Part shown: in pieces, positions 731 through 62,821 of the stretch
How the letters are laid out: each line of letters begins with the position of its first letter
Numbering within the stretch: position 1 is the stretch's first letter
From: a virus
Taxonomy: Duplodnaviria > Heunggongvirae > Uroviricota > Caudoviricetes
IMG/VR virus record: IMGVR_UViG_3300041405_000130
Reading direction: 5' to 3' (one strand)
DNA length: 64,000 nucleotides
Program-made: the position numbers and the translations under genes
The notes under the pieces: generated by a model
Told to the model about the DNA's origin: nothing
Database searches by the model: none
The model's input: only the letters and a program-made list of their open reading frames with translations

Positions 731-1564
731 TTATTTCCTGAGTAGCTTATACAGGTCTTTCAATTCTTTCGAAGCCGTCATGATATCATGATAGAACTTG
801 TCTGGAGTTGTGATACCTGTCCACTTCTTATCCTTGGAGAGCTGCTTCAGTTCTTCCCGGAGTTTCCGTGGCTGTTGTGGTTCGATGAGTTGCCCATCCC
901 CAAACACTTGGAGTGTGAACTCTGTGAATGGCATTGGGTATGCGTTTTCGTCTATGCCGTTAAGCTTCGTATACCAAGTGTTGTATGTTTTCAACTTCCC
1001 GGTATGCGACTCCAATAAGAGCAGCCGACTGAACTGAGGTTTCCACAACAGTTCATGTGGGTAATGCGTAAGCATCGCTACAATGCCTTCACCAGACTTT
1101 GGCTTCTGGTCGATCTCCATTACATCCATGTTTGCCGCTTTCATTTGTTGGTAAAGCTCAATCGCAACAAAGCGTTCAAACATTTCGTAAGCGAGTTGCT
1201 TAGGAGTCTTGGCTACCTTGAATGTCGCCTTAGGAAACATCCACTTGACTGCTTCCTTAGAAGCAAGGTAATAGCGAATCTTACCGGTGAAACCTTGTTG
1301 TGCCAAAGCTACTGGCAAAACCTGCGTCTCTGTTAACAGGACTGCTACGGAGTTGGTATAATCCATCTCCAAGGCTTTGTCAGTAGGTACAGCTTGGAAC
1401 AAGTTACGGGCCAGCGTTCGGAGGTTAATCCAAACTGTTTGAATTGTCTTGACGTTGGTCGGTTGTTTTGGTTGATTCGGGTGAATCCCAAGTAAACCTT
1501 CGAATGCAAGAGACGTGCCGATACTGACCGGTATCTGTCCTACGTCGCGTTCGATGATGTCCAT
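731..1564 (-). CDS. conserved phiKZ-like hypothetical protein (nucleus/nvRNAP locus)
   Basis: 277-aa ORF in a collinear minus-strand operon. Confidence 0.8.
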   Translation of the reverse strand: MDIIERDVGQIPVSIGTSLAFEGLLGIHPNQPKQPTNVKTIQTVWINLRTLARNLFQAVPTDKALEMDYTNSVAVLLTETQVLPVALAQQGFTGKIRYYLASKEAVKWMFPKATFKVAKTPKQLAYEMFERFVAIELYQQMKAANMDVMEIDQKPKSGEGIVAMLTHYPHELLWKPQFSRLLLLESHTGKLKTYNTWYTKLNGIDENAYPMPFTEFTLQVFGDGQLIEPQQPRKLREELKQLSKDKKWTGITTPDKFYHDIMTASKELKDLYKLLRK

Positions 1565-1572
1565 TTAATGCC

Positions 1573-2712
1573 TCAGGCCAGACCGTCTAACCGCTGGAGG
1601 CAACGCATGATAGCTGCCTCATCAGGGGCATGCTTAGCCAACGCCGGTACCAGTAGTTCTCTGATTGAATCACGGGTGATCGCTTTGAACTGAGACATGT
1701 CAAATGCCTGAAATGTTTCAGCGACCGTATTCTTTTTAGATTCGACTTTATCGACCGTTACAGTCCAGTCTAACTGTGGATACTCTTTCTTGTAGACATC
1801 GATGTCTCCATTCGCAACATCGTTCGGATTACAGCGCAGACGCACTGCAGAACCTTTCGGGAGATCCCGAATGAATTCCTTAATCGCGTAGTTTAGTTGC
1901 TTAGTATCCATGCCATGACATTCAAGGGTAACGTATTTCTTAGCCCCCCTGTTTTCAATGAACGTGCGTTCCCACTTACCGTCTTGTTTGACAGTAACTT
2001 TGAACATACCCTTGGCACCTTCGTCATTATGACAAATACGGTCAAAGCTACCTGCAGCCAAAATCCTTTCATTCACGGTCATCAAGTGAACGTGTCCAAT
2101 TAGAATCTGGTGCTTAACGAGTTTGAGATACTCTTCCTCATTGTGGGTTGGCTCTGGAACAATAGCTGGGAGCTGGTAAGAGAAAGCACCGTGCATGATA
2201 GCAAAGTCAACTTGCGTAATACCCAGTTCAGCCATTTGTTGCTTTACTTCTGCCAACGTAACGTCAGTAGAAGGGTTGTGTTTGTCTGGCACATATAAGA
2301 AGTATGCATCTAGCTTCTCGATGTACTCAATCGAAAGGTTCTTGGTATAATGAAGATCAACCTTAATATCAGCATTGATTTTCTGTTCAGTGAAAAATCG
2401 AGATTGCTCTCGGTCGTGGCTCGGTGTACCTTCAACGATTCGCATCATCACGTTAAACGCTGCACAGCGCAGCATAAGCAATGTCATCCATCGGTTGATC
2501 TGGTGCACCACTTCATCACCATTGTTCAATTGCCGATCAAACAGGTCACCTGTAATGATCAACATGTCTACTTCCTTCAACAGCTCATCCGTGATCGTAA
2601 GTTCTAAGTTACGAATGATGTGGCTCGCAGGAGTAGAGCGATGCCCGAGGTGGACATCGCCTAAACTCAAGTAACGAAAGACGCCTGGCTTTTTGGTTAG
2701 ATCAGTCTTCAT
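1573..2712 (-). CDS. sbcD: Mre11/SbcD-like metallophosphoesterase nuclease
   Basis: Motifs GDVHLGH, GDLFD, GTPSHD, MHGAF, GHVH, GSF. Confidence 0.9.
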   Translation of the reverse strand: MKTDLTKKPGVFRYLSLGDVHLGHRSTPASHIIRNLELTITDELLKEVDMLIITGDLFDRQLNNGDEVVHQINRWMTLLMLRCAAFNVMMRIVEGTPSHDREQSRFFTEQKINADIKVDLHYTKNLSIEYIEKLDAYFLYVPDKHNPSTDVTLAEVKQQMAELGITQVDFAIMHGAFSYQLPAIVPEPTHNEEEYLKLVKHQILIGHVHLMTVNERILAAGSFDRICHNDEGAKGMFKVTVKQDGKWERTFIENRGAKKYVTLECHGMDTKQLNYAIKEFIRDLPKGSAVRLRCNPNDVANGDIDVYKKEYPQLDWTVTVDKVESKKNTVAETFQAFDMSQFKAITRDSIRELLVPALAKHAPDEAAIMRCLQRLDGLA

Positions 2713-3346
2713 CTTCTTCGTCAGTAAAACAGCTGGATGGCGGAGACAAGGTCGTACTCACCTCCGCTCGTTTATCTGCTGACAGAGGAAGTGAATCTTT
2801 ACCCAGTGGGTTATTTGCATCGGCGGTCACGTCGAGTTCTTTGCCGTACACCTGTAAGATACGGTGAATAGGTAAAAGAATATCGTCGACCATATCGGGT
2901 AAGATGGTAATACGCTGCAGGAAACCCCGCATGGTATCATCAATCAAATCGACACGATGCAAATCACGATAGCGGTTCATGTTGTGGATGACATCACCCA
3001 CTGATAAACCACCATCCGCTTGAGGGACTGTAGTACGGGGCGTTCGGATGATCGGAGGAACTACATGCAGTACCTTGGATCGATCATGGTCATCCACTAC
3101 ACGGAGTGGCATCATCAAATCAACCACGTAGCGTTGATACGCTTTGCGGTTAGCCGGAACCAGGATTCGTTCAAGCAATGGAACAACTTGCTTTACAAAT
3201 GCCGATTCGTTAATGGTCGGTGTATTTTCTTCGACAGCAGCCAGGATAGCAGAAGCGTACTTCTTAGGACGTTCCCCCATTTCCCGAGCGAGGCGTTCTT
3301 CACGCGCTGACTTGGTCTTCACCGGAGTTGGTTGGGGGTACTCCAT
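2702..3346 (-). CDS. hypothetical protein
   Basis: 214-aa ORF overlapping its neighbours in the operon. Confidence 0.75.
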   Translation of the reverse strand: MEYPQPTPVKTKSAREERLAREMGERPKKYASAILAAVEENTPTINESAFVKQVVPLLERILVPANRKAYQRYVVDLMMPLRVVDDHDRSKVLHVVPPIIRTPRTTVPQADGGLSVGDVIHNMNRYRDLHRVDLIDDTMRGFLQRITILPDMVDDILLPIHRILQVYGKELDVTADANNPLGKDSLPLSADKRAEVSTTLSPPSSCFTDEEDED

Positions 3347-3806
3347 TTTCCTGTCCTTTCTTATTCAGGAAAAGAGTGAACCAAGCGGTCTCACCGTCTT
3401 CCAGATATTGTTTACGAGAGAATACTTGTACCAAGATATCGGTACCTTGGTTGATCAGGGTGTCTGGATCTTCTGCATTAGCAAAAGTGTAGTCGTCACC
3501 TTTACGGGTAACAATAACAGTGCCAGGTGTACCTGGTTCTACACGCTGTACACCGTATTCTTCAGCGGTTGGTACAGTCGAGATAGCCATCATCTGGTCA
3601 GACACACCATGGAACACTTCAGACAACACATGCATCAGGTTACGCGTACGGTTAGCTTCGGAAGTCCGCACCAACTGTACGAGTTGTTCCATTGCTTGAG
3701 CGTTGTTCTTGAGTTCTGCTTCCAGAATAGCTACACGTTTTTCCAGATTACGGATACGGATTGCTTCGTCTACCGCTGGGGCATCTGGTTGTACTGCTTC
3801 GGTCAT
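3300..3806 (-). CDS. hypothetical protein with N-terminal coiled coil
   Basis: 168-aa ORF; heptad-like IRNLEKRVAILEAELKNN. Confidence 0.75.
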   Translation of the reverse strand: MTEAVQPDAPAVDEAIRIRNLEKRVAILEAELKNNAQAMEQLVQLVRTSEANRTRNLMHVLSEVFHGVSDQMMAISTVPTAEEYGVQRVEPGTPGTVIVTRKGDDYTFANAEDPDTLINQGTDILVQVFSRKQYLEDGETAWFTLFLNKKGQENGVPPTNSGEDQVSA

Positions 3807-3807
3807 C

Positions 3808-4215
3808 TTAAACTCCGTTGTTCAGCTTGGCAATTTTGAGTACACGTGAGTCTTGGAATTGAACCATCCAACCCACGGTAAAAGTTTTGTCTTCAGTCAC
3901 CACATAGCCTGTGAAGTTGATCGTGTACTGTGAAGGTTTATCAGGGTCTTCCTGGACCGTCACGTTTGCGTGCGACTGTTCGTTGAACGATGCTTTCAAT
4001 TTTGCATCGAGCTCATCTTGCAATCGCGTCTCCAGATCGAGCATCCGGTTAGCATAGATCTTTAACAGGTATTGTAGTGAGATGTTTTGGTCACGGTGAG
4101 CGACAGTCATCGAGTAGTTCGATTCCATAAAACAAGCGATGATGTAATCCGCTTTATCTTCAGGGTGATCGATCCAACCTTTAATGCCCATCGTCGGGAT
4201 ATATTTTTCAGCCAT
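3808..4215 (-). CDS. conserved phiKZ-like hypothetical protein
   Basis: 135-aa ORF, SD AGGTAAG, abuts the next gene. Confidence 0.75.
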   Translation of the reverse strand: MAEKYIPTMGIKGWIDHPEDKADYIIACFMESNYSMTVAHRDQNISLQYLLKIYANRMLDLETRLQDELDAKLKASFNEQSHANVTVQEDPDKPSQYTINFTGYVVTEDKTFTVGWMVQFQDSRVLKIAKLNNGV

Positions 4216-4273
4216 GGACTTACCTATTCTCTTATTGAGTCATAGAGTAAGCCGAAAGAAAAAAGAAACGCTC

Positions 4274-4289
4274 GGGGACCGAAGTCCCC
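4274..4289 (-). terminator. intrinsic terminator
   Basis: GGGGAC-TTCG-GTCCCC followed by a T-rich tract on the minus strand. Confidence 0.7.
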
Positions 4290-4295
4290 AAGGTT

Positions 4296-4799
4296 TTACT
4301 TCAGTCGCAGAGCCTTTTCAACTGGCAGCTCGGCAATAACTTTGATCCAGTCTTTGATCGGAGAGTCCATACGCACCGATACGCTCGACGTGCGTGGGAC
4401 TGTTTCGCCTTCTGCAGCATCGACGTCGTCGTTGATGATACTAACCAGACGATCGCCTTCGAATTCGAGGGTGAAGTTGTGGCGGCCAGACTTGTGCTTC
4501 ATGCCGGCGGCCAGCGGATTGATCAGGGTAAAGAAAATTCCGGGTGCTACGAAACGGATAGGGAAAGCACGGCCTTCGAAACTCAGATCGTAGTGACCGG
4601 TTTCAGCGTTGTAGGTCAGACCAAAGGTCTCTTCCGGTTTGAAGACACGGATACCACGTTTGCCTTTCGATTCGGTAGGGTTCAGAGTTGGTTCGGTCAT
4701 GCGATGTGCCTTTTGATTTTCGAATTGGATTGAAAGTGAGCCAGGGTTTTTATGCATCACGTATGTTTCACGACCATGATCGTCAATCTCGATGATCAT
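4296..4799 (-). CDS. hypothetical protein
   Basis: 167-aa ORF, ATGA overlap with the upstream gene. Confidence 0.7.
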   Translation of the reverse strand: MIIEIDDHGRETYVMHKNPGSLSIQFENQKAHRMTEPTLNPTESKGKRGIRVFKPEETFGLTYNAETGHYDLSFEGRAFPIRFVAPGIFFTLINPLAAGMKHKSGRHNFTLEFEGDRLVSIINDDVDAAEGETVPRTSSVSVRMDSPIKDWIKVIAELPVEKALRLK

Positions 4800-8322: not shown

Positions 8323-10233
8323 TTAGTACATCAGACCAGTTGCACCGCCTACCGATGGAGCGTAGACGTTTTGGTTCTGGATGTAGGAAGTTACGTTCGC
8401 TACACCTTGTACGTTCATGCCAGCCAGAGCCATGTTACCCTGGAAGCGCTGACCACCGAATACGGAGCCGACGTTGTCCATGGTTACAGCGATACCAGCT
8501 TTCAGCTGAGCAGCGTCCATAGCAGCAACCAGTTTAGGGTTGATGATGGCACGAGTTACACGACCAGCACTGGTAACGTTACCCAGGTATTGCTTGTCGT
8601 ACTGCTCGGACTTCTTCAGACGAACTTCAGGGTGAACGTTCGGGTTGCACTTGGCAGCGTACCAGTCCATGAACTCTGCAACAACACCGTCGCAAGCGTT
8701 CAGTGCGTACAGGGTATCCAGATCACGACGGTCACGCTTCTCGCCGTTTTCGTCTGGGTAGTAGCCCAGTTGGAAGTCGGTGCCGTATGGACGGAACAGC
8801 CACTCGTTTGCTACGTCGAACACGGAGGTGAAGTTATCACGACCGTACAGGTTGCACAGGATGCGGATCAGGCCAGCTTTAGCAGCTTGCTCGTTTGCAC
8901 CACCCATCGAGTCGATGATCATGGTTTCGATGAACGAGTTATCGCCCATGCGGTCCAGGTCGATCATGATCACTGGGTTCTGTTGTACTTGAGAGAACAT
9001 CAGACCAGCGAAGTCTTGCTCGGTGAAGGTATCGGACTTGGTCTCAACCTTGATACCAGCAGCGGTCAGGTAACCGACAGCGCCGATGTCACGTGGGTCT
9101 TTGATACGACCGATGGTTGGCAGGAACTGCTTAGCCCAGCCTTGACCGTTGGTTGCACGGAAAGCGTTACCCAGCGAGAAGAAGTACATCTCTGGAGTGT
9201 TCGCCATGATCCAACCAGCTTGCTTAACGGCAGTAACTACCAGAGCAGGCATGAATGGAGCAGGTACTGGACCTTGTGGCATGCCGTAGACTTGTTGTAC
9301 TTGCTGTGGCGAGTACTCGAGGTCGGTGAACATTGCTACGGAGTTCAGCTGCGAATCAGCATCGTAGTATTCGTTCTCTTGAACGTTCTGACCTTGCTTC
9401 TTGCGACGCTGCAGAGTTACGACGATGTCGGCACGCTGAGGGATACCAGTGTTCGATTCCATCGGAGTACCGGTGTAGTCGATGGTAGCCGCCAGGATTT
9501 CGTCAGCGGATTGCATGTCGGTAGCCAGGGAGAACGGACGCTCATCGCTCAGGCGAGCCATGGTGTCTTCAACCGAGTTGACTGCTTTGATCAGCAGGTT
9601 GCGAACAACCAGCTTGTCATCGAAATCGAATTCAGCGTGGATTGCTTGTGGACCAGCGTTGTATACGTCAGCGCCTGGGTGACCAGTTACTTGACGAACG
9701 TGAGCAACGATACGCGACCAGTACAGCGGAGTGAAGATGTCGCTGGCGTCTGGCTTGGTTTCGAACTTGTCGAAGGTGCTGAAGCCGTTGGCGATCTGGA
9801 AGGTCTTCGGCTTAACGTTGACCGAGTTGTCGACGATCGGCAGAGCTTTAACCAGGATTGCTGGCTTGCCACGGTTGTCAACCAGTTTCAGAACCAGGAT
9901 CGATGCCATCGCTACTTGATGAGCGGTACGGTCGAAACGGAACAGGTGGAAACCATCGCTCAGGTCTTGCTGTTCAATTGCTTCGGTACGAGCTTCACTG
10001 AATGCAACGAAAGCTTTGGTGGTGCGAGCGTCGTTACCATCGGCACGACCGGAACGGGAGAAGCGGGCGTTCAGAGAACCGATACCGCCGGAAACTGGGA
10101 GAGCTGCTGGTGCTTGCATTTGTTGTGGTGCCTGTGGCTGTTGGGTTTGCGGTGCAACGAACGGTGTTTGGGTTGCTGCTGGTGCTACTGGAGTTTGTGC
10201 TGCAGAAGCTTGGTTTTGCTTGTTAACTGACAT
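8323..10233 (-). CDS. chmA: chimallin (phage nucleus shell protein, ChmA/PhuN)
   Basis: Q/A/P-rich N-terminus then F-SRSG...DAR, QQDL.D.F, NTPEMY, GEKRDRRDLD.L.ALNA, GQRF.GN, all matching recalled 201phi2-1 gp105. Start placed at ATG 10233 (SD AAGGAA) rather than 10281. Confidence 0.92.
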   Translation of the reverse strand: MSVNKQNQASAAQTPVAPAATQTPFVAPQTQQPQAPQQMQAPAALPVSGGIGSLNARFSRSGRADGNDARTTKAFVAFSEARTEAIEQQDLSDGFHLFRFDRTAHQVAMASILVLKLVDNRGKPAILVKALPIVDNSVNVKPKTFQIANGFSTFDKFETKPDASDIFTPLYWSRIVAHVRQVTGHPGADVYNAGPQAIHAEFDFDDKLVVRNLLIKAVNSVEDTMARLSDERPFSLATDMQSADEILAATIDYTGTPMESNTGIPQRADIVVTLQRRKKQGQNVQENEYYDADSQLNSVAMFTDLEYSPQQVQQVYGMPQGPVPAPFMPALVVTAVKQAGWIMANTPEMYFFSLGNAFRATNGQGWAKQFLPTIGRIKDPRDIGAVGYLTAAGIKVETKSDTFTEQDFAGLMFSQVQQNPVIMIDLDRMGDNSFIETMIIDSMGGANEQAAKAGLIRILCNLYGRDNFTSVFDVANEWLFRPYGTDFQLGYYPDENGEKRDRRDLDTLYALNACDGVVAEFMDWYAAKCNPNVHPEVRLKKSEQYDKQYLGNVTSAGRVTRAIINPKLVAAMDAAQLKAGIAVTMDNVGSVFGGQRFQGNMALAGMNVQGVANVTSYIQNQNVYAPSVGGATGLMY

Positions 10234-10307
10234 GCTGCTGTTCCTTTTACGAATTCGCTTTTCTTGATCAAGAAAGGACATTCCATTATCTGGAGAGTGT
10301 CCAAGTA

Positions 10308-53882: not shown

Positions 53883-55103
53883 ATGACTGGCACTGTTGCT
53901 GACATCGCACCAAAGATCTTTAACCTAAGTAAAGGGGACTACGGTTCCTACAACATCATTTTGGGTGAAGACCCAGGTCTGTTGGATTCGATCACACACA
54001 ACCACCCCGAAGCATGGGCGCTGTATAAACGTCTGCGTAATTTGGACTGGGACGAACTGGAGTTCGACTTCTTTACATGTAACGCTGAATTCAAGAATGC
54101 CGAGAAGTCTGTCTACGACATGATGATCAAAACTCTGGCATGGCAATGGGAAGCGGACTCCGTGGCTTCCCGTTCGATCGTAACTATTCTGGGTAACGTC
54201 ATTACTGATGGCCGCATCTGGACTGGCTACAACCGTATCTCTGAAAACGAATGTGTTCATGCACTGACGTACTCTGAGATCGTTCGTGGTTCTTTCGATG
54301 ACCCTGATGAAATCCGTGAAGAGATCCTCAAGGTAGAAGAAGCACACAGTCGTATGAAGATTGTGTCGGAAGTAATGGCTAAGGCTCACGAGACCTCCCT
54401 GAAATATGGTTTGGGTCAAGTAGAGAACTGCCAAGAAACCTACAACGACATTTTCATGTTCCTGATTGCTCTGTACTTCTTGGAGCGTATTCAGTTCATG
54501 GCATCTTTCGCTGTGACGTTTGCAATTGGTCGTACTGGTATGTTCCAGCAGATCACTAAAGCCGTCCAGAAGATCGCTGTCGACGAATTCGAGATTCACG
54601 CACAGTTCGGTCAGCATGTACTGCGTTCGGAGCTTGCAACGGAACGTGGGCGTACTGCTTACGAACAATGCAAAGACAAGATTGTTCGTCTGCTGTGGGA
54701 AATCATTCGCACTGAAGTTGAATGGGCAATGTACCTGTTCTCCGAAGGTCGTGAACTGACTGGTGTTACTGCCAAGTCTCTGATTCAATGGGTTCTGTTT
54801 AACGCTAAAGCGGCAGCAGAGTTCCTGAACGTCAAAGACGATATCTTCTTCCGCTTCGATTACGACTTCGAGCAGATTGCAGGCTTCCCGTTTGAGTGGC
54901 CAGAGAAGAACCCACTGCCGTACATGACTAAGTATATTCAGCTGTCCGCTACTCAGTCTTCGGCACAGGAAGAGAAGAAAGGCGATTACATGACTAACTT
55001 GCTGACTCGTCGCAACGAACGTGATGTATTCGAATTCACCATTCCTGGTTTCGACATGTCCAAGCTAGAAAATTATCAACCGGCAGAACAACTACCGGCG
55101 TAA
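53883..55103 (+). CDS. nrdB: ribonucleotide reductase class Ia beta subunit
   Basis: Di-iron ligands EADSV, E.VHALTY, LE.IQF, DEF.IH. Confidence 0.93.
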   Translation: MTGTVADIAPKIFNLSKGDYGSYNIILGEDPGLLDSITHNHPEAWALYKRLRNLDWDELEFDFFTCNAEFKNAEKSVYDMMIKTLAWQWEADSVASRSIVTILGNVITDGRIWTGYNRISENECVHALTYSEIVRGSFDDPDEIREEILKVEEAHSRMKIVSEVMAKAHETSLKYGLGQVENCQETYNDIFMFLIALYFLERIQFMASFAVTFAIGRTGMFQQITKAVQKIAVDEFEIHAQFGQHVLRSELATERGRTAYEQCKDKIVRLLWEIIRTEVEWAMYLFSEGRELTGVTAKSLIQWVLFNAKAAAEFLNVKDDIFFRFDYDFEQIAGFPFEWPEKNPLPYMTKYIQLSATQSSAQEEKKGDYMTNLLTRRNERDVFEFTIPGFDMSKLENYQPAEQLPA

Positions 55104-55122: not shown

Positions 55123-55151
55123 GGCTTCCTTTAGGGGAAGCCTTTATGTCG
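55123..55151 (+). terminator. terminator, TTTATG family
   Basis: GGCTTCCT-TTAG-GGGAAGCC-TTTATGTCG. Confidence 0.75.
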
Positions 55152-55196: not shown

Positions 55197-57056
55197 ATGA
55201 ACGTTTATGAGTGGATGGGTGCAACTGAGAGCGAGCCCCCTTTACACGAAGATGATTCCCGAGAGAATCCAACGCACCGCCCTCAAGTCCCACACGAAGA
55301 TGATGATAGCAATCGTCAGCATCACGGTGATTCGTCACCTGCCGGGGGTGGGCGCGTTCATGAAGAAGATGAACATCAAGTTGATCGAGTAATTGCAGAT
55401 CGACACATGGTTGAAGACATGACCTGCTCTAATGAGAGCATTATCGAAGACGTCCGTAAGTTCTTCAAGTTTCATAACCGTGGAAAAGACTTCTTTGAAC
55501 TCGACGGTAATGCTAAAGCCAACATGGCTAAAGTATATGCAAACTTAGAAAAGACATTTGGTTCTAAGGAATGGCTGGAAAAGCAAACCCCAATCAAAGG
55601 CTCTATCAAAGTTGGGGATCTGGCTGATCGCCTTAACTTGGATAATCTGTCTGGAACCGTTCAAGAAACATCCGCTATTAATATCGCTTTTGCTACGTCT
55701 GTAGACAACGCCCAGCTAGAAATCATCAAACAACTGAAACCTCTGTTGGTGGGCTGGACACCAGGTAAACTAACCGATAAAGTGTACGAGAAAACTCGTG
55801 ACGGTTTAAGTGATGTGAAGACGGTTATTGACGTAATCAAGAAACCTAGTCGCAGCAAAACATCGTTACTTGATGGTAAGACAAGTGATGCTGTAAAACC
55901 AGCACTAACACTAGATGAAACTCTTGAGTTAGCCCAAACCATCTTGAAGTGTATGAAAGATGACGTTGCGCGTATCGATGGTCAGAATGATGAACTCGAT
56001 CGTAACCTAGGTGAATTCTTTGATGCCCATCACGAAATTATCCGTGAGGATGACCATAGTGAATCATACAACTCACAAGCCTGGGAAAAGCTTTCTTCGG
56101 CAGTCCTTCGGAAACTAAGCCATAACGGTATCCCTGAAGCATTAGCAGCCTTCCGTCAATTTGAAGGGGCATGTATTGCAGCTGTGATTTATATGGAGCG
56201 TTCGTTCAAAGGTGGTAAGGGTGTATCAGTCGAGCATCACACCGATGAAACAGTATCCAACGAAGGTTTTCTGGATGCGATAAAGGATCTGTTTAAGTCC
56301 AAACCTAAAGATGTCCAGATTAAAGCAGACATCGATCAAACGGTACTGAAGCAACTGCAAGAAACTGTATTGAACGATAACTGGTTAAAACAACAGAAGT
56401 TCAACGAAGGTACAGTTAGCGTACGTTTTCCAGATGCTGTAAAGAACGGCGATTACAAACCTGTCCTGCAACGCGTTAAGCAAGAATTGGCTACTACCGC
56501 CAAGTACAACGCCGGTAAGGCAAATGCTTGGCTAAATCCAATTAAGCAGGCGATGGATATAATCATCGAAGGTCGTGTGAACGGGGTCAGTCTAGAACAG
56601 GCCGAGGCACTGCGTGAACTTGCAGATTATGATAATTTGGACTTTGATGTTGATTACAAAGAACCAAATAACTTCTTGAGCGATGACGCCGAAGTAGAAG
56701 TTCCAGCGCTAGATGAAGCTGGCATTAAAGATGCGGTCAATGCAATTATCGAACTGGTTAAAGCTCGTGAACTGTATACCCGTACTTCAACAGGGAATAT
56801 CCCTGGCGGTATTCCTCACACCAGTATGCACAAGATTCGAGCAGTGCGTGATGAAGAAACACGGGATGTCCTGATAGATCTCCATGAAGAAATCAGCAAC
56901 ATTACGGATTACGCCATTGAAACGTTCTTTCAAAATCAGTATGCTTACTTTGACTTATTCGAAGCCTTGGCTAAACCCCTGATGGATTGGATTCAGAAAT
57001 CTATTTCTGGTATCAAATACAGTAACGAGGCAATTGCTGATGTGGGAAAGCTCTAA
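55197..57056 (+). CDS. phiKZ-type inner-head/virion paralogue-family protein with an acidic His-rich propeptide and repeated modules starting at SNE
   Basis: SNE at aa 78, 354 and 609; modules share TxxNxxWLxxQ; ends SNEAIADVGKL*. Confidence 0.75.
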   Translation: MNVYEWMGATESEPPLHEDDSRENPTHRPQVPHEDDDSNRQHHGDSSPAGGGRVHEEDEHQVDRVIADRHMVEDMTCSNESIIEDVRKFFKFHNRGKDFFELDGNAKANMAKVYANLEKTFGSKEWLEKQTPIKGSIKVGDLADRLNLDNLSGTVQETSAINIAFATSVDNAQLEIIKQLKPLLVGWTPGKLTDKVYEKTRDGLSDVKTVIDVIKKPSRSKTSLLDGKTSDAVKPALTLDETLELAQTILKCMKDDVARIDGQNDELDRNLGEFFDAHHEIIREDDHSESYNSQAWEKLSSAVLRKLSHNGIPEALAAFRQFEGACIAAVIYMERSFKGGKGVSVEHHTDETVSNEGFLDAIKDLFKSKPKDVQIKADIDQTVLKQLQETVLNDNWLKQQKFNEGTVSVRFPDAVKNGDYKPVLQRVKQELATTAKYNAGKANAWLNPIKQAMDIIIEGRVNGVSLEQAEALRELADYDNLDFDVDYKEPNNFLSDDAEVEVPALDEAGIKDAVNAIIELVKARELYTRTSTGNIPGGIPHTSMHKIRAVRDEETRDVLIDLHEEISNITDYAIETFFQNQYAYFDLFEALAKPLMDWIQKSISGIKYSNEAIADVGKL

Positions 57057-57106
57057 GTGGTTTCGTTAAGGCAGGGGAAAGAGATCCCACTGTCGTAGGG
57101 GACCAC
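57044..57106 (+). promoter_or_regulatory. candidate programmed -1 ribosomal frameshift signal
   Basis: Slippery heptamer G GGA AAG (57044-57050) and a stem-loop at 57057-57106 starting 6 nt later. Confidence 0.7.
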
Positions 57107-57796
57107 AACTATCAGAACGCAAAGAAATTAGTTACACAGACGTTTTTCAATGATAGTTGGTTAGCTAAACAGAAGTTCACAGGCAAGCCCGTGAAAGTAT
57201 CCTTCCCAGGAAACCTAACGGCGTTTGACAACTCACTCATCGATACCATTCGGCAGGATGCACAACCCCATTCGAACAAGGCTAAGGAATACTTACAAGC
57301 TGGTTTCAAACCAGTCAATGAAGTAATCCATTACCTGTATCAACATGGATGGGAAAACGATCCTAAGAAAGCCAAGTGGCTGCTAGACAACACAGACTTC
57401 AAGTTTAATCTGAAAGCACCACATATTCAGATTGCTAAGCCCTTAGTAGAGCATGAACTACCCGCTCTGGATAAGAAGTCTATCAAGGATGTTGCTAAAA
57501 CATTCTTAGATCTAGTGGAACTGAAACGTGAACTCTGGGACGTACATCTAATCCGTATTTGGAAAACGTTTGGTGAAGAAGGTAATCATTACGCTCGTGG
57601 TGGTAAACGCTATCGTGATGCCGAAGCTACTAATGCGCCAAAAGAAGTTTATCAGTTGTTTGAGAAACTCCAAAAGTACGGGACTGTATTCGAAGACTTC
57701 CTTTATAAGTTCAACTCATCTTACACGGAGATCACGGTCCCTACAGCGGACGGGTTGTTACGTTGGTTGACTCGATCGGTAGAACCACAGGAATAA
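57050..57796 (+). CDS. -1 frame extension (third module) of the 55197 protein; track calls only 57191..57796 from GTG
   Basis: Frame open from 57041; ALSGFVKAGERDPTVVGDHNYQNAKKLVTQTFFNDSWLAKQKFTGKPVKVSFP aligns with module 2 ETVLNDNWLKQQKFNEGTVSVRFP. Confidence 0.75.
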   Translation, partial: ALSGFVKAGERDPTVVGDHNYQNAKKLVTQTFFNDSWLAKQKFTGKPVKVSFPGNLTAFDNSLIDTIRQDAQPHSNKAKEYLQAGFKPVNEVIHYLYQHGWENDPKKAKWLLDNTDFKFNLKAPHIQIAKPLVEHELPALDKKSIKDVAKTFLDLVELKRELWDVHLIRIWKTFGEEGNHYARGGKRYRDAEATNAPKEVYQLFEKLQKYGTVFEDFLYKFNSSYTEITVPTADGLLRWLTRSVEPQE

Positions 57797-57819: not shown

Positions 57820-57946
57820 GTTGAGGACGTACGCGCCTTAACACCACCCAGTCACCAGCCGGAGCATCCTACGGAGCGCTTCTAGAAGAGATCCTTCTGT
57901 GATTGTCACATCTTAAGGGCTGTCCTTCGGGATGGCCCTTATGCCG
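57820..57946 (+). ncRNA. candidate small RNA between promoter motif and terminator
   Basis: No ORF; 5' hairpin 57820-57842; ends at terminator 57916-57946. Confidence 0.4.
57916..57946 (+). terminator. terminator, UUCG/TATGCCG family
   Basis: AGGGCTGTCC-TTCG-GGATGGCCCT-TATGCCG. Confidence 0.8.
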
Positions 57947-57976
57947 TTATCGTATGTTAACAATGGAGATACACTA

Positions 57977-58501
57977 ATGAGTACCTTTACTCGATTTACC
58001 GCAAAAGAACAACTAACATACGACGAAGAAGCCAGTCATATCCTCGGTAAAACTTACTACCGTACGGTTCCAGGCTTTCGTTATTACATCGGGCATGAGA
58101 ACTCGGATAAATATGTAGACGTTCCTACAGGCTTCCTGACGGACGGTGCATCGGTTCCTTTCTTGTTCCAACTGTTGATTCCCGTCTTAGGCGAATACTC
58201 ACAGGCTACCACCCTACACGATTTCCTCTGCGAACGATATGAAATTACCCAGGTCATCAATGGTGTACCTACACAGGTAAAAATCGACCGAGCAGAAGTT
58301 GACCGTATTCTTTACGAGGCAATGCGTGTTCTGGAAGTTGCTGCTTGGAGACGTAACGTTATTCAAGTTGGTGTCGATGCTTACCGTGTCTTTAAACGAC
58401 CAACCAAACCGGTCGTCAATCCAAAGAAAGCGGAGCTAGAACGTGAACCTAATCGTCAAAGCAATGGCAGCACCAGTTACGGAATTACTGAAGCAATTTA
58501 A
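57977..58501 (+). CDS. DUF1353-family protein
   Basis: VP.GF.TDGASVP...G.Y..A..LHDFL; start ATG 57977 with SD GGAG. Confidence 0.8.
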   Translation: MSTFTRFTAKEQLTYDEEASHILGKTYYRTVPGFRYYIGHENSDKYVDVPTGFLTDGASVPFLFQLLIPVLGEYSQATTLHDFLCERYEITQVINGVPTQVKIDRAEVDRILYEAMRVLEVAAWRRNVIQVGVDAYRVFKRPTKPVVNPKKAELEREPNRQSNGSTSYGITEAI

Positions 58502-59570: not shown

Positions 59571-59647
59571 GTGAGCTTAGCTCAGTTGGATAGAGTGCCG
59601 GGATGTGACCCCGGAGGTCAGGAGTTCAATCCTCCTAGCTCACACCA
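59571..59647 (+). tRNA. trnH: tRNA-His (GUG)
   Basis: Cloverleaf: GTGAGCT/AGCTCAC, CCGGG-AT GTG AC-CCCGG, AGGAG-TTCAATC-CTCCT, encoded CCA; G at 59570 in the -1 position. Confidence 0.9.
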
Positions 59648-59668
59648 TTTCTTTTCTGGGAGTATTCT

Positions 59669-59836
59669 ATGAAAGTTAAGATCAAACCACGTCCACTAGC
59701 AGACTTTGGTCCAGCCGATTGCGGCTGTTGCAGCAGACTTAGTTGGAAAAATCTTAAACTCGATAAACAGATACTTCGAGAAGCTGTTAATGATGCTGAC
59801 TACGCAGTCAGTAAAAGAGAACAGCAAGCAGCATAA
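59669..59836 (+). CDS. small protein (55 aa) with a CGCC motif inside the tRNA cluster
   Basis: SD GGGAG at 59658; MKVKIKPRPLADFGPADCGCCSRLSWKNLKLDKQILREAVNDADYAVSKREQQAA*; below the track cutoff. Confidence 0.65.
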   Translation: MKVKIKPRPLADFGPADCGCCSRLSWKNLKLDKQILREAVNDADYAVSKREQQAA

Positions 59837-59837
59837 C

Positions 59838-59914
59838 GCAGCCATAGTTCAGTTGGTTAGAATGCCTGCCTGTCACGCAGGAGGTCGCGGGTTCGAGTCC
59901 CGCTGGTTGCGCCA
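59838..59914 (+). tRNA. trnD: tRNA-Asp (GUC)
   Basis: GCAGCCA/TGGTTGC, CCTGC-CT GTC AC-GCAGG, TTCGAGT, CCA. Confidence 0.95.
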
Positions 59915-59920
59915 GTTTCA

Positions 59921-59996
59921 CAGAGTGTAGTTCAGTTGGTAGAATGCGTGGTTTGGGACTACGTGGTCGGGGGTTCGAAGCCTCCCACTCTGACCA
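59921..59996 (+). tRNA. trnP: tRNA-Pro (UGG)
   Basis: CAGAGTG/CACTCTG, CGTGG-TT TGG GA-CTACG, CCA. Confidence 0.95.
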
Positions 59997-60000
59997 GTTT

Positions 60001-60130
60001 TGAAATTAACTAACAACGACGGTAAGGTACAGCCCGAATCACACTAAAGGAGCCGCCCGGTGATTCAATAGTGGTGCATGGGTACAAGTCAGGAGATAAA
60101 ACGAGTCGCCTTTCTCCATAGTTAGTTTCA
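60001..60130 (+). ncRNA. candidate structured ncRNA (130 nt)
   Basis: 12-bp closing stem 60001-12/60119-30; internal GAATCAC/GTGATTC and GGAGA/TCTCC stems. Confidence 0.55.
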
Positions 60131-60140
60131 AATGTTTTAC

Positions 60141-60226
60141 GGATGATGTAGAGACGGATGGCTACCGTCAGCGGCCTGTAACCCCGCCGGTTCTCCTAGA
60201 GGTTCAATTCCTTCCTTCATCCACCA
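60141..60226 (+). tRNA. trnY: atypical tRNA-Tyr-like gene (GUA)
   Basis: Anticodon loop CT GTA AC, T loop TTCAATT, A73-CCA; non-canonical acceptor and D stems. Confidence 0.6.
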
Positions 60227-60231
60227 ATGAT

Positions 60232-60315
60232 GCCCAGGCTTAGCTTAAACGGCAAAGCACTTGTCTTGCGCGGCGCGCAAGCAAGAGACATGCAGGTTCG
60301 ACTCCTGCCCAGGGC
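60232..60315 (+). ncRNA. tRNA-like RNA lacking an anticodon loop (pseudo-tRNA)
   Basis: D arm GCTT/AAGC, T arm GCAGG-TTCGACT-CCTGC; anticodon arm replaced by an 11-bp hairpin with a 3-nt loop; no CCA. Confidence 0.65.
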
Positions 60316-60320
60316 TGCTA

Positions 60321-60580
60321 GACAGAAGGCACTTCGGTGCAGAACTAAAACGAGGCGTCATTACACGCCTACCTAGATGACGACCGACCTGACGCGCAGG
60401 GTAATCAGCTACTAGGGAACTGTTTAGGTAAAGAATTTCCATCGTTGTCCAGACCAGCTCTTGCACCAAACGGGTAACCGTTAGCTCGCTGCAAGCCTGG
60501 ACTCCCTTGGGAATATTAGCACTACCCGATCCAGAAGTTAGTCGGGGTTAATAGTCACCGGTGAAGCCCGGTATAGCGAT
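60321..60580 (+). ncRNA. candidate large structured ncRNA (about 260 nt)
   Basis: No ORF; at least 8 nested or adjacent helices including cUUCGg and GNRA tetraloops. Confidence 0.6.
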
Positions 60581-60584
60581 CCAT

Positions 60585-60660
60585 TGGCAAATAGCTCAGT
60601 TGGTAGAGCACACGGCTGTTAACCGTGCGGTCCCTGGTTCGAGTCCAGGTTTGCCAGCCA
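60585..60660 (+). tRNA. trnN: tRNA-Asn (GUU) copy 1
   Basis: TGGCAAA/TTTGCCA, CACGG-CT GTT AA-CCGTG, CCA. Confidence 0.95.
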
Positions 60661-60661
60661 T

Positions 60662-60737
60662 TTCGGGATAGCTCAGTTGGTAGAGCAGCGCACTGTTAAT
60701 GCGTTGGTCCCAGGTTCGAACCCTGGTCCCGGAGCCA
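60662..60737 (+). tRNA. trnN: tRNA-Asn (GUU) copy 2
   Basis: TTCGGGA/TCCCGGA, GCGCA-CT GTT AA-TGCGT, CCA. Confidence 0.95.
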
Positions 60738-60744
60738 ATTCAAT

Positions 60745-60774
60745 AAAGGAGATCTTCGGATCTCCTTTATGCTG
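60745..60774 (+). terminator. terminator of tRNA cluster 1
   Basis: AAAGGAGATC-TTCG-GATCTCCTTT-ATGCTG. Confidence 0.85.
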
Positions 60775-60799
60775 TCTAATAGTGAAAGAGGAAATACAA

Positions 60800-61087
60800 A
60801 TGGCAAGCGAAGATCTATTGTTCCACGGTAAATTGACTGTCACAGGTAAAAGGGTTCTAGAGTATCCAGTATACAAGATCGTTCAACTGTACGCTGGCGC
60901 ATGGAATGTGTTGTGTAAAATGTATGGTGACTCAGGTACACAACCAAATGAAGCGGCTTGTAAGGAATGGGTACGTAAACATATCGATCATTACGTTACC
61001 CTGGAAGACTATCAAGAGCTAGAGAAAGAAAACTTAGCCCTTAAAGAAAGACTGGCTCAATACGAAATCGAACACACGGGGGATTAA
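60800..61087 (+). CDS. hypothetical protein
   Basis: Track ORF 60677..61087 overlaps a tRNA; ATG 60800 with SD GAGG preferred. Confidence 0.7.
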   Translation: MASEDLLFHGKLTVTGKRVLEYPVYKIVQLYAGAWNVLCKMYGDSGTQPNEAACKEWVRKHIDHYVTLEDYQELEKENLALKERLAQYEIEHTGD

Positions 61088-61288
61088 ATGTTAGAATCTA
61101 TTGAAGAACAAAAGGTTTATAAGTCTCCAACTGGAAAACCTTTCAGGGTACTCTATCTGGCTCGCCACGCACAAGACTGTGGTTGGCCTATGGTTGTCTA
61201 TACTAACCTTGGTCCAACTGAGGATGCCCCAATGGGGACGGTATGGACTATTGCGGAGAGTATATTCCTAAGGACATTTAGTGAATGA
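61088..61288 (+). CDS. DUF1653-like small protein
   Basis: VYKSPTGKPFRVLYLARHAQDC..MVVY pattern. Confidence 0.65.
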   Translation: MLESIEEQKVYKSPTGKPFRVLYLARHAQDCGWPMVVYTNLGPTEDAPMGTVWTIAESIFLRTFSE

Positions 61289-61467
61289 TGTCACCTAACC
61301 TGATAGAGAACATCACAATCAGAATAGCCAAAGCTATGGGCATGACCCCAGAAGAATTCCAGCTATATCAGAAGCGACACATGGCTGATTTAGATCAACG
61401 TCTATCGGATCAGATGGAACAACAGAAAATGACTCCCGATGTATTAGCTAAGCGGTGTACGTTATGA
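61285..61467 (+). CDS. small helical protein, paralogue 1
   Basis: ATGA coupled; ends TPDVLAKRCTL. Confidence 0.65.
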   Translation: MMSPNLIENITIRIAKAMGMTPEEFQLYQKRHMADLDQRLSDQMEQQKMTPDVLAKRCTL

Positions 61468-61637
61468 CAATTCAAGATTTAATCGACCAGGCACGCGCAC
61501 GGAGATCTCCAGAAGAGCAGGCACAAATCGATGAAGACATGCGTCTAAGAATGGAAGCTATCAATAAACGAGAACATGCTTTGTTTGTTGCATCGTGTGT
61601 AACGGAAGAACAACTCAATCGGTTGATCTCATTATGA
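61464..61637 (+). CDS. small helical protein, paralogue 2
   Basis: ATGA coupled; ends TEEQLNRLISL. Confidence 0.65.
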   Translation: MTIQDLIDQARARRSPEEQAQIDEDMRLRMEAINKREHALFVASCVTEEQLNRLISL

Positions 61638-61828
61638 GTTTACAAGCATTGATCGGTTTATCGAAAACAACCATCGACATGAATGATCCCGAGGTTATCG
61701 CTCGATTCAAAGCTGTCCGTAAAAAAATGGAAGAATTTGATAAAGAAATTGAAGAACGAGTTAGACAACGCATTCCTACTCAAGAACAATTACAGAAAGT
61801 AGTTAACTGGGGCACTCTTTACGGTTAG
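61634..61828 (+). CDS. small helical protein, paralogue 3
   Basis: ATGA coupled; contains TQEQLQKVVNW. Confidence 0.65.
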   Translation: MSLQALIGLSKTTIDMNDPEVIARFKAVRKKMEEFDKEIEERVRQRIPTQEQLQKVVNWGTLYG

Positions 61829-61851
61829 GAGGCTTTGCCTCCTTTATGCCG
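61827..61851 (+). terminator. terminator, TTATGCCG family
   Basis: AGGAGGC-TTT-GCCTCCT-TTATGCCG. Confidence 0.75.
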
Positions 61852-61885
61852 TTCAATAGTCTGTATATGAATTGGCAGGTGTGCT

Positions 61886-62599
61886 ATGTTTGAAATATTG
61901 TTATTACCACATGCAGGGTTACAAGACGAAGAAGCAGGACAAACTATTTTTCTTTATGATCCTGAAACCAATACGGACCTAGCTGGGTCGGGAGCCACAA
62001 TTACATTAATTGGGGCGGCTGTCAAGGACGACACAATCATTAACGGACATAAGACACTATCCATGCCCACAACTGCATCTGGATTTAGAGCGGTGTTCCC
62101 CACCCCACTCGATCTACAGGGAAAGAACTGGACACTGGAATGGTCGTTCTATAATACGTCCTCTGCAGCAAGCTATGCTCCAGAATTAACTGTTAACTCT
62201 TCTACTGCTGGTACAGGTATTCTATCGCGGTGGGGAGATGCTGGTTTTGGAAATCGATTACAGTTAGGGGGCAGGTTTTCCACTGCACCAGAATGTTGGA
62301 GCCCACCCGTTTTAAAATCGACTTCATTAAACAACGAAGTCAACATGGCCCTTTCTTGTAAAGATGGGATAGTCCACGTATTCCGAAATGGAGTTAAGGT
62401 GGCGATGGCAAACGGTACCAGCGGCACCTACAACTATCAAACGTATCCAGTCGGTGCCAACTTATCTAATTTGATTAACTTAACCGCTGGATATATTGGA
62501 TCAGGCTCTGCTACTCAGACTGGATATAGGGGCAGAATTCGTTTAAGTCTAGGTGGACGGTACACGCGTAACTATCCTCTCGCACCACTAGAACTCTAA
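61886..62599 (+). CDS. concanavalin A/LamG-like beta-sandwich protein (probable virion/tail accessory)
   Basis: WTLEW.FY, V.VFRNGVKV, GYIG...GYRGRIRLS..RY pattern. Confidence 0.65.
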   Translation: MFEILLLPHAGLQDEEAGQTIFLYDPETNTDLAGSGATITLIGAAVKDDTIINGHKTLSMPTTASGFRAVFPTPLDLQGKNWTLEWSFYNTSSAASYAPELTVNSSTAGTGILSRWGDAGFGNRLQLGGRFSTAPECWSPPVLKSTSLNNEVNMALSCKDGIVHVFRNGVKVAMANGTSGTYNYQTYPVGANLSNLINLTAGYIGSGSATQTGYRGRIRLSLGGRYTRNYPLAPLEL

Positions 62600-62603
62600 G
62601 AAT

Positions 62604-62628
62604 AAAATACTCGTAGTGTAATAGTATA
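62604..62628 (+). promoter_or_regulatory. bipartite promoter AAAATACT-N10-TAGTATA for tRNA cluster 2
   Basis: Recurrent motif. Confidence 0.65.
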
Positions 62629-62630
62629 CG

Positions 62631-62745
62631 AGTGAATGCCGTTAGTTCACCAAAAGAGCGTAAGAGCAAGAATCCCCTATAGCTTGCTCGGCAGGGACCA
62701 GGGATATCGGTTAGCCTGGTTTAACAAAAACCCGACCAAGATACA
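62631..62745 (+). ncRNA. structured leader or small RNA before tRNA-Trp
   Basis: Three hairpins: GTGAA/TTCAC, GAGCAAG/CTTGCTC, ACCAGG/CCTGGT. Confidence 0.45.

Positions 62746-62821
<76 letters not shown>

Follow-up and report, generated by a model that had tools for sequence, protein, structure and literature searches.

Programmed -1 ribosomal frameshifting in tailed phages is textbook material for the tail chaperones and for a few capsid and tube proteins. In T7 gene 10A/10B, Listeria phage PSA and SPP1 (gp17.1*), a shift near the end of a structural gene produces a minor, longer form of the protein that is found in the virion; the extension stays attached and decorates the shell or tube. 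The G/GT tail assembly chaperone genes of phage lambda, reportedly worked out by Levin, Hendrix and Casjens in 1993 and by Xu, Hendrix and Duda in 2004, lie between the tail tube and tape measure genes. There a -1 shift at the heptamer G GGA AAG, near the end of the upstream open reading frame (ORF), yields, at a constant ratio, a minor product with an extended C-terminus.

Heptamers of the XXXYYYZ type ending in AAG, decoded by tRNA-Lys, are also used by E. coli dnaX (tau/gamma) and by IS3/IS911, with a stem-loop 5-7 nt downstream and a Shine-Dalgarno (SD)-like element 11-13 nt upstream. Frameshifting in dnaX brings translation to an early stop, and the shifted product is the shorter one. In retroviral Gag/Gag-Pol, a -1 shift near the end of a structural polyprotein sets the ratio of the downstream part; this part reaches the particle solely in fused form, from which the virion protease then excises it.

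The inner-body proteins of phiKZ, of the Chimalliviridae, are gp93, gp95, gp97, gp162 and their paralogues. They consist of helix-rich paralogous modules encoded by separate, clustered genes, and they are cleaved by the protease gp175 after the Glu of an S/A/G-X-E motif (PMC11297242, PMC5694885). Frameshifting is not known to have been described for proteins of this kind, as the initial annotation of the locus considered here remarked, and the literature searched likewise yielded no report of it for phiKZ inner-body proteins or, more broadly, for the internal head proteins of jumbo phages that form a nucleus; frameshifting and recoding both go unmentioned in a 2026 review of the biology of jumbo phages. 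Judged from its sequence and from those of its relatives, a probable internal-head polyprotein gene of a Chimalliviridae jumbo phage very probably undergoes programmed -1 ribosomal frameshifting to give an 866-aa fusion protein, and would be a well-supported new case of a known recoding trick.

The phage and the polyprotein gene

The window, that is, the whole 64,000-nt stretch of DNA analysed, comes from a member of the Chimalliviridae (nucleus-forming, phiKZ-like). It encodes a chimallin homologue (8323-10281, minus strand; phrog_4795, E 1e-145) as well as a tail sheath and a terminase, and the nearest isolates are Pseudomonas phage D6 and Psa21. The gene of interest is preceded by the RNR alpha and beta genes and followed by a DUF1353 gene and a tRNA island. 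Its features are:

55197-57056, plus strand: 0-frame ORF of 619 aa, ending GAT GTG GGA AAG CTC TAA
55428-55436, plus strand: first S-N-E, aa 78-80, boundary of leader and module 1; putative prohead-protease site
56256-56264, plus strand: second S-N-E, aa 354-356, boundary of modules 1 and 2
57021-57029, plus strand: third S-N-E, aa 609-611, boundary of modules 2 and 3, 6 codons 5' of the GGA codon
57027-57030, plus strand: SD-like GAGG, weak and tentative stimulator, 13 nt 5' of the heptamer
57038-57040, plus strand: TGA that shuts the -1 frame on its 5' side; the remaining overlap of 13 nt contains the heptamer
57044-57050, plus strand: slippery heptamer G GGA AAG
57050-57796, plus strand: -1-frame continuation (module 3), 248 codons and stop; module 3 is aa 612-866 of the fusion
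57054-57056, plus strand: 0-frame stop TAA, one codon 3' of the heptamer
57057-57106, plus strand: stem-loop after a 6-nt spacer; outer stem 57057-57064/57099-57106 (8 bp), inner stem 57070-57078/57085-57094 (9 bp)

The 0-frame ORF, whose coordinates and closing letters are as first annotated, comprises an acidic, His-rich leader (aa 1-80), module 1 (81-356), module 2 (357-611) and an eight-residue tail, AIADVGKL. The -1 frame opens at 57041 and runs to a stop at 57794-57796, as had been claimed, and the fusion, then put at about 866 aa, is 866 aa on translation: slipping would join 618 residues to 248, with the junction ...DVGK/ALSGFVK when translated across the heptamer (the slash marks the shift). 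Module 3 can be aligned in register with modules 1 and 2, bearing out the earlier statement for module 2, and the N-terminus of module 2 (SNE-GFLDAIKDLFKSKPKD) matches the junction across the shift site.

The positions of the S-N-E motifs at module boundaries are kept in the relatives, and S/A/G-N-E stands just upstream of the shift in all 10 genomes compared. The Psa21 orthologue (PSA21_426, 54% identical to the 0-frame ORF) has no module 3 and ends exactly in ...SNE-stop. The third motif had initially been placed ten codons before the shift; it does lie just upstream, but the distance is shorter, the Glu being six codons before GGA and seven before AAG. A count of ten is obtained only from the Ser to the last sense codon, S-N-E being codons 609-611.

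The 0-frame ORF matches PHROG 24656, 'virion structural protein' (head; E 1e-15), and not a chaperone family; the description 'lambda G/GT-type' fits the heptamer but not the gene, which is not a tail assembly chaperone. The module shows similarity (21% identity, E 1e-4) to the C-terminal portion of an annotated 'internal head protein' of 896 aa from phage HHBS36_1, whose gene lies in a cluster of six such genes. The structural model of module 3 is helix-rich (pLDDT 67) and is matched by Foldseek to jumbo-phage virion structural proteins (E 2e-7 to 5e-4), with no match in the PDB; a feature search of the ESM Atlas gave nothing informative on its function. Pfam has no family for either the 0-frame ORF or the -1 continuation, and nothing linked the gene directly to phiKZ gp93/95/97. 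The Pfam S77 prohead protease model found no match in the D6 record. Like the phiKZ inner-body proteins, the product consists of helix-rich paralogous modules with S/A/G-X-E at their boundaries, and its similarity in sequence and fold to 'internal head' or 'virion structural' proteins is weak; unlike them, it combines two to four modules in one ORF beside RNR genes, the last being reached by the proposed frameshift. The gene thus appears to encode a modular internal-head (inner-body-like) polyprotein, whose presence in the virion is suggested by family resemblance only.

The proposed frameshift signal

The proposed heptamer G GGA AAG is present and, checked against the ORF start, lies in X XXY YYZ phase. 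RNAfold reproduces the outer and inner stems that had been drawn 6 nt downstream, including the single bulge of the inner stem. The hairpin has a minimum free energy of -25.7 kcal/mol (z = -4.2; equalled in stability by 0 of 200 shuffles) and is the most stable 65-nt window of the whole gene. An Rfam search around the shift site gave no match. Neither a terminator nor a convincing promoter was found on the plus strand between the two frames, and the hairpin is not followed by a T-run.

GGGAAAG itself is not enriched in the window (6 observed, 6.1 expected). Among the 107 window ORFs of at least 100 aa, only the 619-aa ORF has an in-phase XXXYYYZ near its end with a -1 frame continuing beyond the stop, in this case for 246 codons. 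A second GGGAAAG, at 57075-57081 within the hairpin, was dismissed because it is out of phase for either frame.

The lambda heptamer is identical and likewise stands near the end of the upstream ORF of a virion-assembly gene, although lambda is said to need no downstream hairpin, whereas a strong one is present here. In the type of heptamer, its final AAG and the spacing of the stem-loop, the site is also like those of dnaX and IS3/IS911. The GAGG may be a weak counterpart of their upstream SD-like element. Its duplex with the anti-SD is calculated at -5.6 to -5.9 kcal/mol in the window phage and in two uncultured relatives (L002 and L007), at -3.3 in D6 and at -1.0 to -2.7 in the in-frame relatives L003 and L008; pairing at least as strong as -5.0 kcal/mol occurs in 17% of background windows, so that the GAGG is not significant alone.

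Conservation among relatives

A megablast search of the phage collection with the gene found nothing, and the relatives were reached only through protein-level searches. The initial annotation had asked whether heptamer, stop and stem are conserved in orthologues, and they are, in five further distinct genomes: in each of Pseudomonas phage D6 and the uncultured L002, L007, L004 and L013, the heptamer is in phase, the 0 frame stops one codon after it, and a hairpin follows at an equal distance. With the window phage they form the set of six frameshift-type genomes. Module 3 of the five relatives is 63-80% identical at the amino-acid level. The 0-frame stop is at the same position in all six (TAA in five, TGA in one), and the -1 frame is closed upstream at the same place by TAA in D6 and TGA in L002. 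A contig designated P0021 has a like split layout at the level of gene arrangement.

In-frame orthologues lacking the heptamer had been named as a finding against the shift. The picture is not so simple: five orthologues keep the signal, while four, which make up a sister clade (L003, L008, L014 and L015), each have one uninterrupted ORF, 586-633 aa long, with a net additional nucleotide. Their in-frame junction (e.g. NE-NFSSLESKLGGFF) and the trans-frame peptide SNE-DFGSLGK/ALSGLF can be aligned with no gap. The in-frame relatives thus encode the same junction peptide, which points to the fusion protein as the selected product.

The hairpins of the other five frameshift-type genomes range from -17.1 to -22.1 kcal/mol and those of the four in-frame genomes from -12.7 to -16.6; the hairpin is therefore more stable in 6/6 frameshift-type than in 4/4 in-frame genomes, a contrast that traces to a single evolutionary event. 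In D6 and L002 the hairpin ranks among the 7-12% most stable windows of the gene. Covariation analysis gave the hairpin no support (one compensatory pair, covariation term 0), and the outer stem lies within conserved codons.

In the best tree the frameshift-type L004 groups next to the in-frame clade, a placement under which the frameshift would be the older state. A tree in which the frameshift-type genomes are forced into one clade is, however, not rejected (p-AU 0.27), and either state, frameshift or in-frame, may have come first.

Selection on the two frames and alternative explanations

Over the 40 codons upstream of the heptamer, substitutions fall on third positions of the 0 frame. Downstream, across 46 codons that contain no start, the substitutions are at third positions of the -1 frame (pS 0.59-0.81, pN/pS 0.22-0.29), and the other frames of this segment contain two to five stops. 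The selected frame switches from 0 to -1 exactly at the heptamer. The first two -1 codons read Ala-Leu in all six genomes by way of synonymous changes (GCT, GCG or GCA; CTA, TTA or CTG), while the 0-frame reading at the first post-heptamer codons varies (L, R or H). GGA accounts for 3% of Gly codons in the window phage, yet it is the codon used at the heptamer in 6/6 genomes; further downstream, 12 of 116 amino-acid-invariant codons (10%) are also codon-invariant. The heptamer is conserved beyond what the protein requires, reflecting selection at the nucleotide level.

These data bear directly on the suggestion that module 3 is a gene of its own, its translation beginning at an internal codon such as the GTG at 57191, and that the heptamer is incidental. 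Gene finders do call products of 198-271 aa from internal GTG or TTG codons at this locus, and the D6 GenBank record, in which the locus is annotated as two genes (WDS62024 and WDS62025), assumes the same. In the window phage, the -1 frame contains no ATG, GTG, TTG, CTG or ATH before codon 49, and that first start-like codon, the GTG at 57191, is not preceded by an SD sequence and is GTT in three relatives. Across the six genomes start-like codons occur at differing positions, none of them conserved. Some lie nearer the junction, namely GTG at -1 codons 11 and 17 in L013 and an upstream TTG in L004, and some independent initiation could occur in these two phages. The 46-49 codons before the GTG at 57191 are nevertheless under purifying selection in the -1 frame and hold a conserved block (ALSG...TVVGDHNYQ...FFNDSWL), and the in-frame relatives translate straight through them. 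As an internal start would also leave the rare GGA codon and the invariance of the heptamer unexplained, it is an improbable account of the locus.

A shift at the RNA level is harder to separate by comparison, as sequence alone cannot tell the two routes apart: the phage or host RNA polymerase might stutter at GGGAAA and add a base to some transcripts. The Chimalliviridae transcribe with unusual multisubunit RNA polymerases of their own, and slippage by these enzymes has been little studied. On the other hand, known sites of transcriptional slippage usually comprise at least seven identical bases, and three G followed by three A is far shorter. The exact X XXY YYZ phase, the hairpin at the canonical 6-nt spacing and the nearby 0-frame stop matter to ribosomes and not to polymerases, and polymerase slippage is accordingly regarded as very improbable.

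That a plain frameshift mutation, or an assembly indel at 57044-57050 (where the alternative letters would be GGGGAAAG or GGGAAAAG), has left module 3 a dead remnant or an artefact, with only the 619-aa protein being made, is very improbable even though Psa21 does without module 3 altogether, for the same break is present in six divergent genomes, one of them assembled identically from several metagenomes (L007, L009, L010 and L011 are the same sequence), which argues against an indel artefact, and module 3 is free of stops over about 250 codons in all six, with pN/pS of about 0.25 and near-saturated synonymous sites.

Proposed mechanism

Under programmed -1 ribosomal frameshifting, most ribosomes would read GGA AAG CUC UAA and terminate, yielding leader, module 1 and module 2 with the eight-residue tail. 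A fraction would pause on the hairpin, allowing tRNA-Gly and tRNA-Lys to re-pair from GGA AAG to GGG AAA, and would then translate 248 further codons in the -1 frame to give the 866-aa protein with module 3. In lambda, G GGA AAG gives only a few per cent frameshifting; a tRNA-Lys CUU isoacceptor in the host would lower slippage. The outcome would differ from that in dnaX, the shifted product here being much longer.

A prohead protease of the phiKZ gp175 type, cutting after Glu in S/A/G-X-E, would be expected to act at the conserved SNE sites. After maturation the two products would then differ only in whether module 3, about 255 aa long, is present in free form. Its ratio to modules 1 and 2 would be fixed by the frameshift rate, module 3 being sub-stoichiometric, and it is reasonable to suppose that the supply of module 3 after cleavage is governed by how efficiently ribosomes shift. 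In its position near the end of a structural gene the shift is like those of T7, PSA and SPP1; in contrast to their attached extensions, a putative protease motif stands here 6-7 residues before the shift, so that the extension would be released inside the head. From lambda G/GT the gene differs in setting, being a probable internal head polyprotein gene beside RNR genes, and in that its extension is a paralogue of the earlier modules, probably released by a protease.

The module may ride into the prohead on the polyprotein, much as retroviral Pol does on Gag-Pol. The likeness, in which processing at this locus is inferred, is one of analogy and not homology. What is added downstream is not a set of enzymes but a paralogue of the modules before it. 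A broader reading along these lines is offered tentatively, with rather less than even confidence. The -1 shift, seven residues past a putative prohead-protease site, might serve to dose an internal head module, possibly an ejected one, that has neither a start nor a capsid-targeting leader of its own and is carried into the prohead and released there. Evolution might have tuned the dose from absent (Psa21) through frameshift-limited (the window phage, D6 and others) to 1:1 (the in-frame clade).

Implications

The D6 paper includes SDS-PAGE of the phage structural proteins; a search of its text found no mention of frameshifting or slippage and no protein-level result for the polyprotein gene. 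If the frameshift is real, WDS62024 and WDS62025 of D6 would be one recoded gene, the second coding sequence being about 50 codons short as annotated, and the correction would extend to every relative. The phages would provide a natural series, without module 3, with module 3 limited by frameshifting and with module 3 at 1:1, that could be used to study how the copy number of inner-body or ejected proteins is determined. D6, which can be grown on P. syringae pv. tomato DC3000, would be a small and convenient system in which to test -1 frameshifting in Pseudomonas.

The probable frameshift signal

The polyprotein gene of the window ends, as the initial annotation described, in a 619-aa ORF (P0001) that closes GAT GTG GGA AAG CTC TAA, as read from the sequence at 56900-57260 and the ORF list. 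The other elements of the proposed signal are also present:

55197-57056, plus strand: 0-frame ORF
57044-57050: slippery heptamer G GGA AAG, in X XXY YYZ phase
57041-57796: open -1 frame, preceded by TGA at 57038-57040 and ending with a stop at 57794-57796
57057-57064/57099-57106 and 57070-57078/57085-57094: stem-loop with one bulge after a 6-nt spacer, reproduced exactly by RNAfold

A -1 slip would yield the expected fusion of about 866 aa (618 + 248 residues), with the junction DVGK/ALSGFVK. The putative protease motif, placed 10 codons ahead of the shift in the same annotation, lies closer: S-N-E occupies codons 609-611, with its Glu 6 codons before GGA.

The hairpin is stable (RNAfold, -25.7 kcal/mol, z -4.2; 0 of 200 shuffles equally stable) and ranks first among all windows of 65 nt across the gene. 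GGGAAAG itself is not over-represented, occurring 6 times in the window against 6.1 expected. An in-phase XXXYYYZ near the ORF end, together with a -1 frame running past the stop, is found in one of 107 window ORFs of at least 100 aa, namely the 619-aa ORF, whose -1 frame outruns its 0-frame stop by 246 codons. A second GGGAAAG (57075-57081), within the 5' arm and loop of the hairpin, is out of phase in both frames and is probably incidental.

The polyprotein and its neighbourhood

The window derives from a nucleus-forming jumbo phage (Chimalliviridae, phiKZ-like). It encodes a chimallin homologue, as well as tail sheath, large terminase and DNA polymerase, and the polyprotein gene lies downstream of the ribonucleotide reductase (RNR) alpha and beta genes.

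8323-10281, minus strand: chimallin homologue (phrog_4795, E 1e-145)
53883-55103: RNR beta gene
55123-55142: GC-rich hairpin, terminator-like score on both strands, ahead of the polyprotein start at 55197
57932-58501: next gene, matching phrog_1158 'tail assembly chaperone'
59571-62821: six tRNAs (His, Asp, Pro, two Asn, Trp; ARAGORN)

The 'tail assembly chaperone' label may be unreliable; orthologues on relatives' contigs carry Pfam DUF1353, and the gene is flanked by the head polyprotein gene and the tRNA island. A Kelch-repeat beta-propeller gene (about 310 aa) separates module 3 from the DUF1353 gene in the uncultured relative L014 (3588-4517) and on the contig of P0021, where the gene is likewise split, and is absent from the window, Pseudomonas phage D6 and the uncultured relative L013. 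The tRNA cluster contains no Lys or Gly tRNA and therefore does not supply the slippery-site tRNAs.

In the polyprotein an acidic leader comes first and then a series of homologous modules, each about 255-276 aa long with S-N-E ahead of it (aa 78, 354 and 609 in the fusion). The protein's PHROG match is family 24656, 'virion structural protein', and it is 54% identical to PSA21_426 of phage Psa21 (602 aa). A weak match (21% identity, E 1e-4) links it to the C-terminal portion of an 'internal head protein' (896 aa) of the P. aeruginosa phage HHBS36_1, whose gene is one of six of this kind in a row. Module 3, modelled with AlphaFold (pLDDT 67), is helix-rich, with residues 1-21 disordered; in BFVD the model matches virion structural proteins of jumbo phages (Psa21, Noxifer, PA7, PS119XW and PhiPA3; E 2e-7 to 2e-2), while a PDB structure search with it gave no match. 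The phiKZ inner body is composed of helix-rich paralogues cleaved after Glu by the prohead protease gp175 (PMC11297242, PMC5694885). Together with the family evidence, this makes 'inner-head protein' a reasonable label, based on weak homology and annotation.

Conservation among relatives

Nine further distinct genomes were recovered by protein-level searches. The in-phase GGGAAAG, stop and hairpin proved to be conserved in D6 and in L002, L007, L004 and L013 from uncultured relatives (L007 being identical to L009, L010 and L011 from other metagenome assemblies). In each, the 0-frame stop lies exactly one codon past the heptamer (TGA in L002, TAA in the rest) and is followed by GTGGT, where the hairpin begins. 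L003, L008, L014 and L015 each have a single ORF of 586-633 aa, with a net gain of one base and no heptamer. Their junction peptides (e.g. ANE-NFSSLESKLGGFFRHKPKD) align gap-free with trans-frame peptides (L004: SNE-DFGSLGK/ALSGLFRGKPKD), and the N-terminus of module 2 (SNE-GFLDAIKDLFKSKPKD) resembles both across the shift point.

Module counts upstream of the junction differ: L013 and the in-frame clade have one, the window, L004 and L007 have two, and D6 and L002 have three. This ties the cassette to the start of module 3. In L013 (Logan contig, 2407-4211) module 1 leads through the cassette directly to module 3, without module 2, and thus the cassette travels with module 3. Psa21 (MK552327.1, 2501-4309) lacks module 3, and its protein terminates exactly at SNE-stop, as though the protease site marked the gene's end. 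D6 (1341-4013) and L002 (823-3513) have a further, highly divergent module at about aa 353-627, lying between modules 1 and 2. With two to four modules among close relatives, modules are gained and lost rapidly.

The GenBank record of D6 (OQ363659.1) splits the locus (1341-4750) into two hypothetical proteins, WDS62024 (890 aa) and WDS62025 (200 aa, from an internal GTG). The start of the latter is placed about 50 codons too far downstream, and the two together look like a single recoded gene.

The reading under selection

An assembly error, a decaying remnant or a conserved internal start could each, in principle, account for a split gene. Between the window and each of four relatives, variation in the 40 codons upstream of the junction falls mainly at 0-frame third positions; in the 46 start-less codons downstream it falls at -1-frame third positions (pS 0.59-0.81, pN/pS 0.22-0.29), the other two frames containing 2-5 stops. 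In the -1 frame, the codons directly past the heptamer specify Ala-Leu-Ser-Gly in each of the six frameshift genomes, maintained through synonymous changes, while the 0-frame codon there encodes Leu, Arg or His. The heptamer is invariant in these genomes and uses GGA, the codon for 3% of the glycines encoded by large genes of the window; among 116 downstream positions with an invariant amino acid, 12 keep the same codon. No start-like codon is positionally constant in the -1 frame, the site differing in each of the six; GTG at 57191 in the window is GTT in L002, L004 and L013. Taken together, these four tests exclude all three explanations, assembly error being ruled out for this assembly through conservation in relatives. 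At the level of genome comparison, the signal, its conservation and the fusion as the selected reading can be regarded as shown.

Possible stimulatory elements

Hairpin stability was computed over the 65 nt that follow the heptamer.

Predicted hairpins in relatives (type; MFE, kcal/mol; z)
D6: frameshift; -17.8; -2.4
L002: frameshift; -17.1; -2.1
L007: frameshift; -19.0; -2.7
L004: frameshift; -22.1; -3.9
L013: frameshift; -20.2; -2.6
L003, L008, L014, L015: in-frame; -12.7 to -16.6; 0.0 to -2.7

As the in-frame genomes group in a single clade (96/93 support), the contrast in stability represents a single evolutionary event. Essentially no covariation was detected in the hairpin by RNAalifold, its outer stem sitting in conserved codons, and the D6 and L002 hairpins rank only in the top 7-12% of gene windows. 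A weak SD-like GAGG lies 13 nt upstream in most frameshift genomes and is absent from both in-frame genomes tested (L003 and L008). For these reasons the hairpin is a likely stimulator and the GAGG a possible one. The hairpin falls in the codons of the first 21 residues of the modelled module 3 segment; a linker predicted to be disordered may leave room for RNA-level constraints. In lambda, G GGA AAG yields a few per cent frameshifting without a hairpin.

Evolution and proposed function

In the best trees the frameshift-type L004 adjoins the in-frame clade, a placement under which frameshifting would be ancestral and the in-frame genomes would have been repaired later. A single clade of all frameshift genomes is not rejected (p-AU 0.27), so the best trees do not fix the polarity. 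Whichever the polarity, the cassette has been kept despite module 3 divergence of up to 37% and near-saturated synonymous sites.

Full-text literature searches covering jumbo phages, phiKZ, the Chimalliviridae and inner-body or internal head proteins gave no account of frameshifting in them, and neither the D6 paper nor a 2026 jumbo-phage review mentions it.

By analogy with the phiKZ family, the prohead protease would cleave each SNE site behind its Glu. Such processing would trim no more than an 8-residue tail from the 0-frame product, while from the frameshift product it would free a module 3 of about 255 aa. Because module 3 lacks a start codon and a leader, the polyprotein would be its only route into the prohead. 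Its ratio to modules 1 and 2 would in this way be set by the frameshift rate, in parallel with retroviral Gag-Pol.
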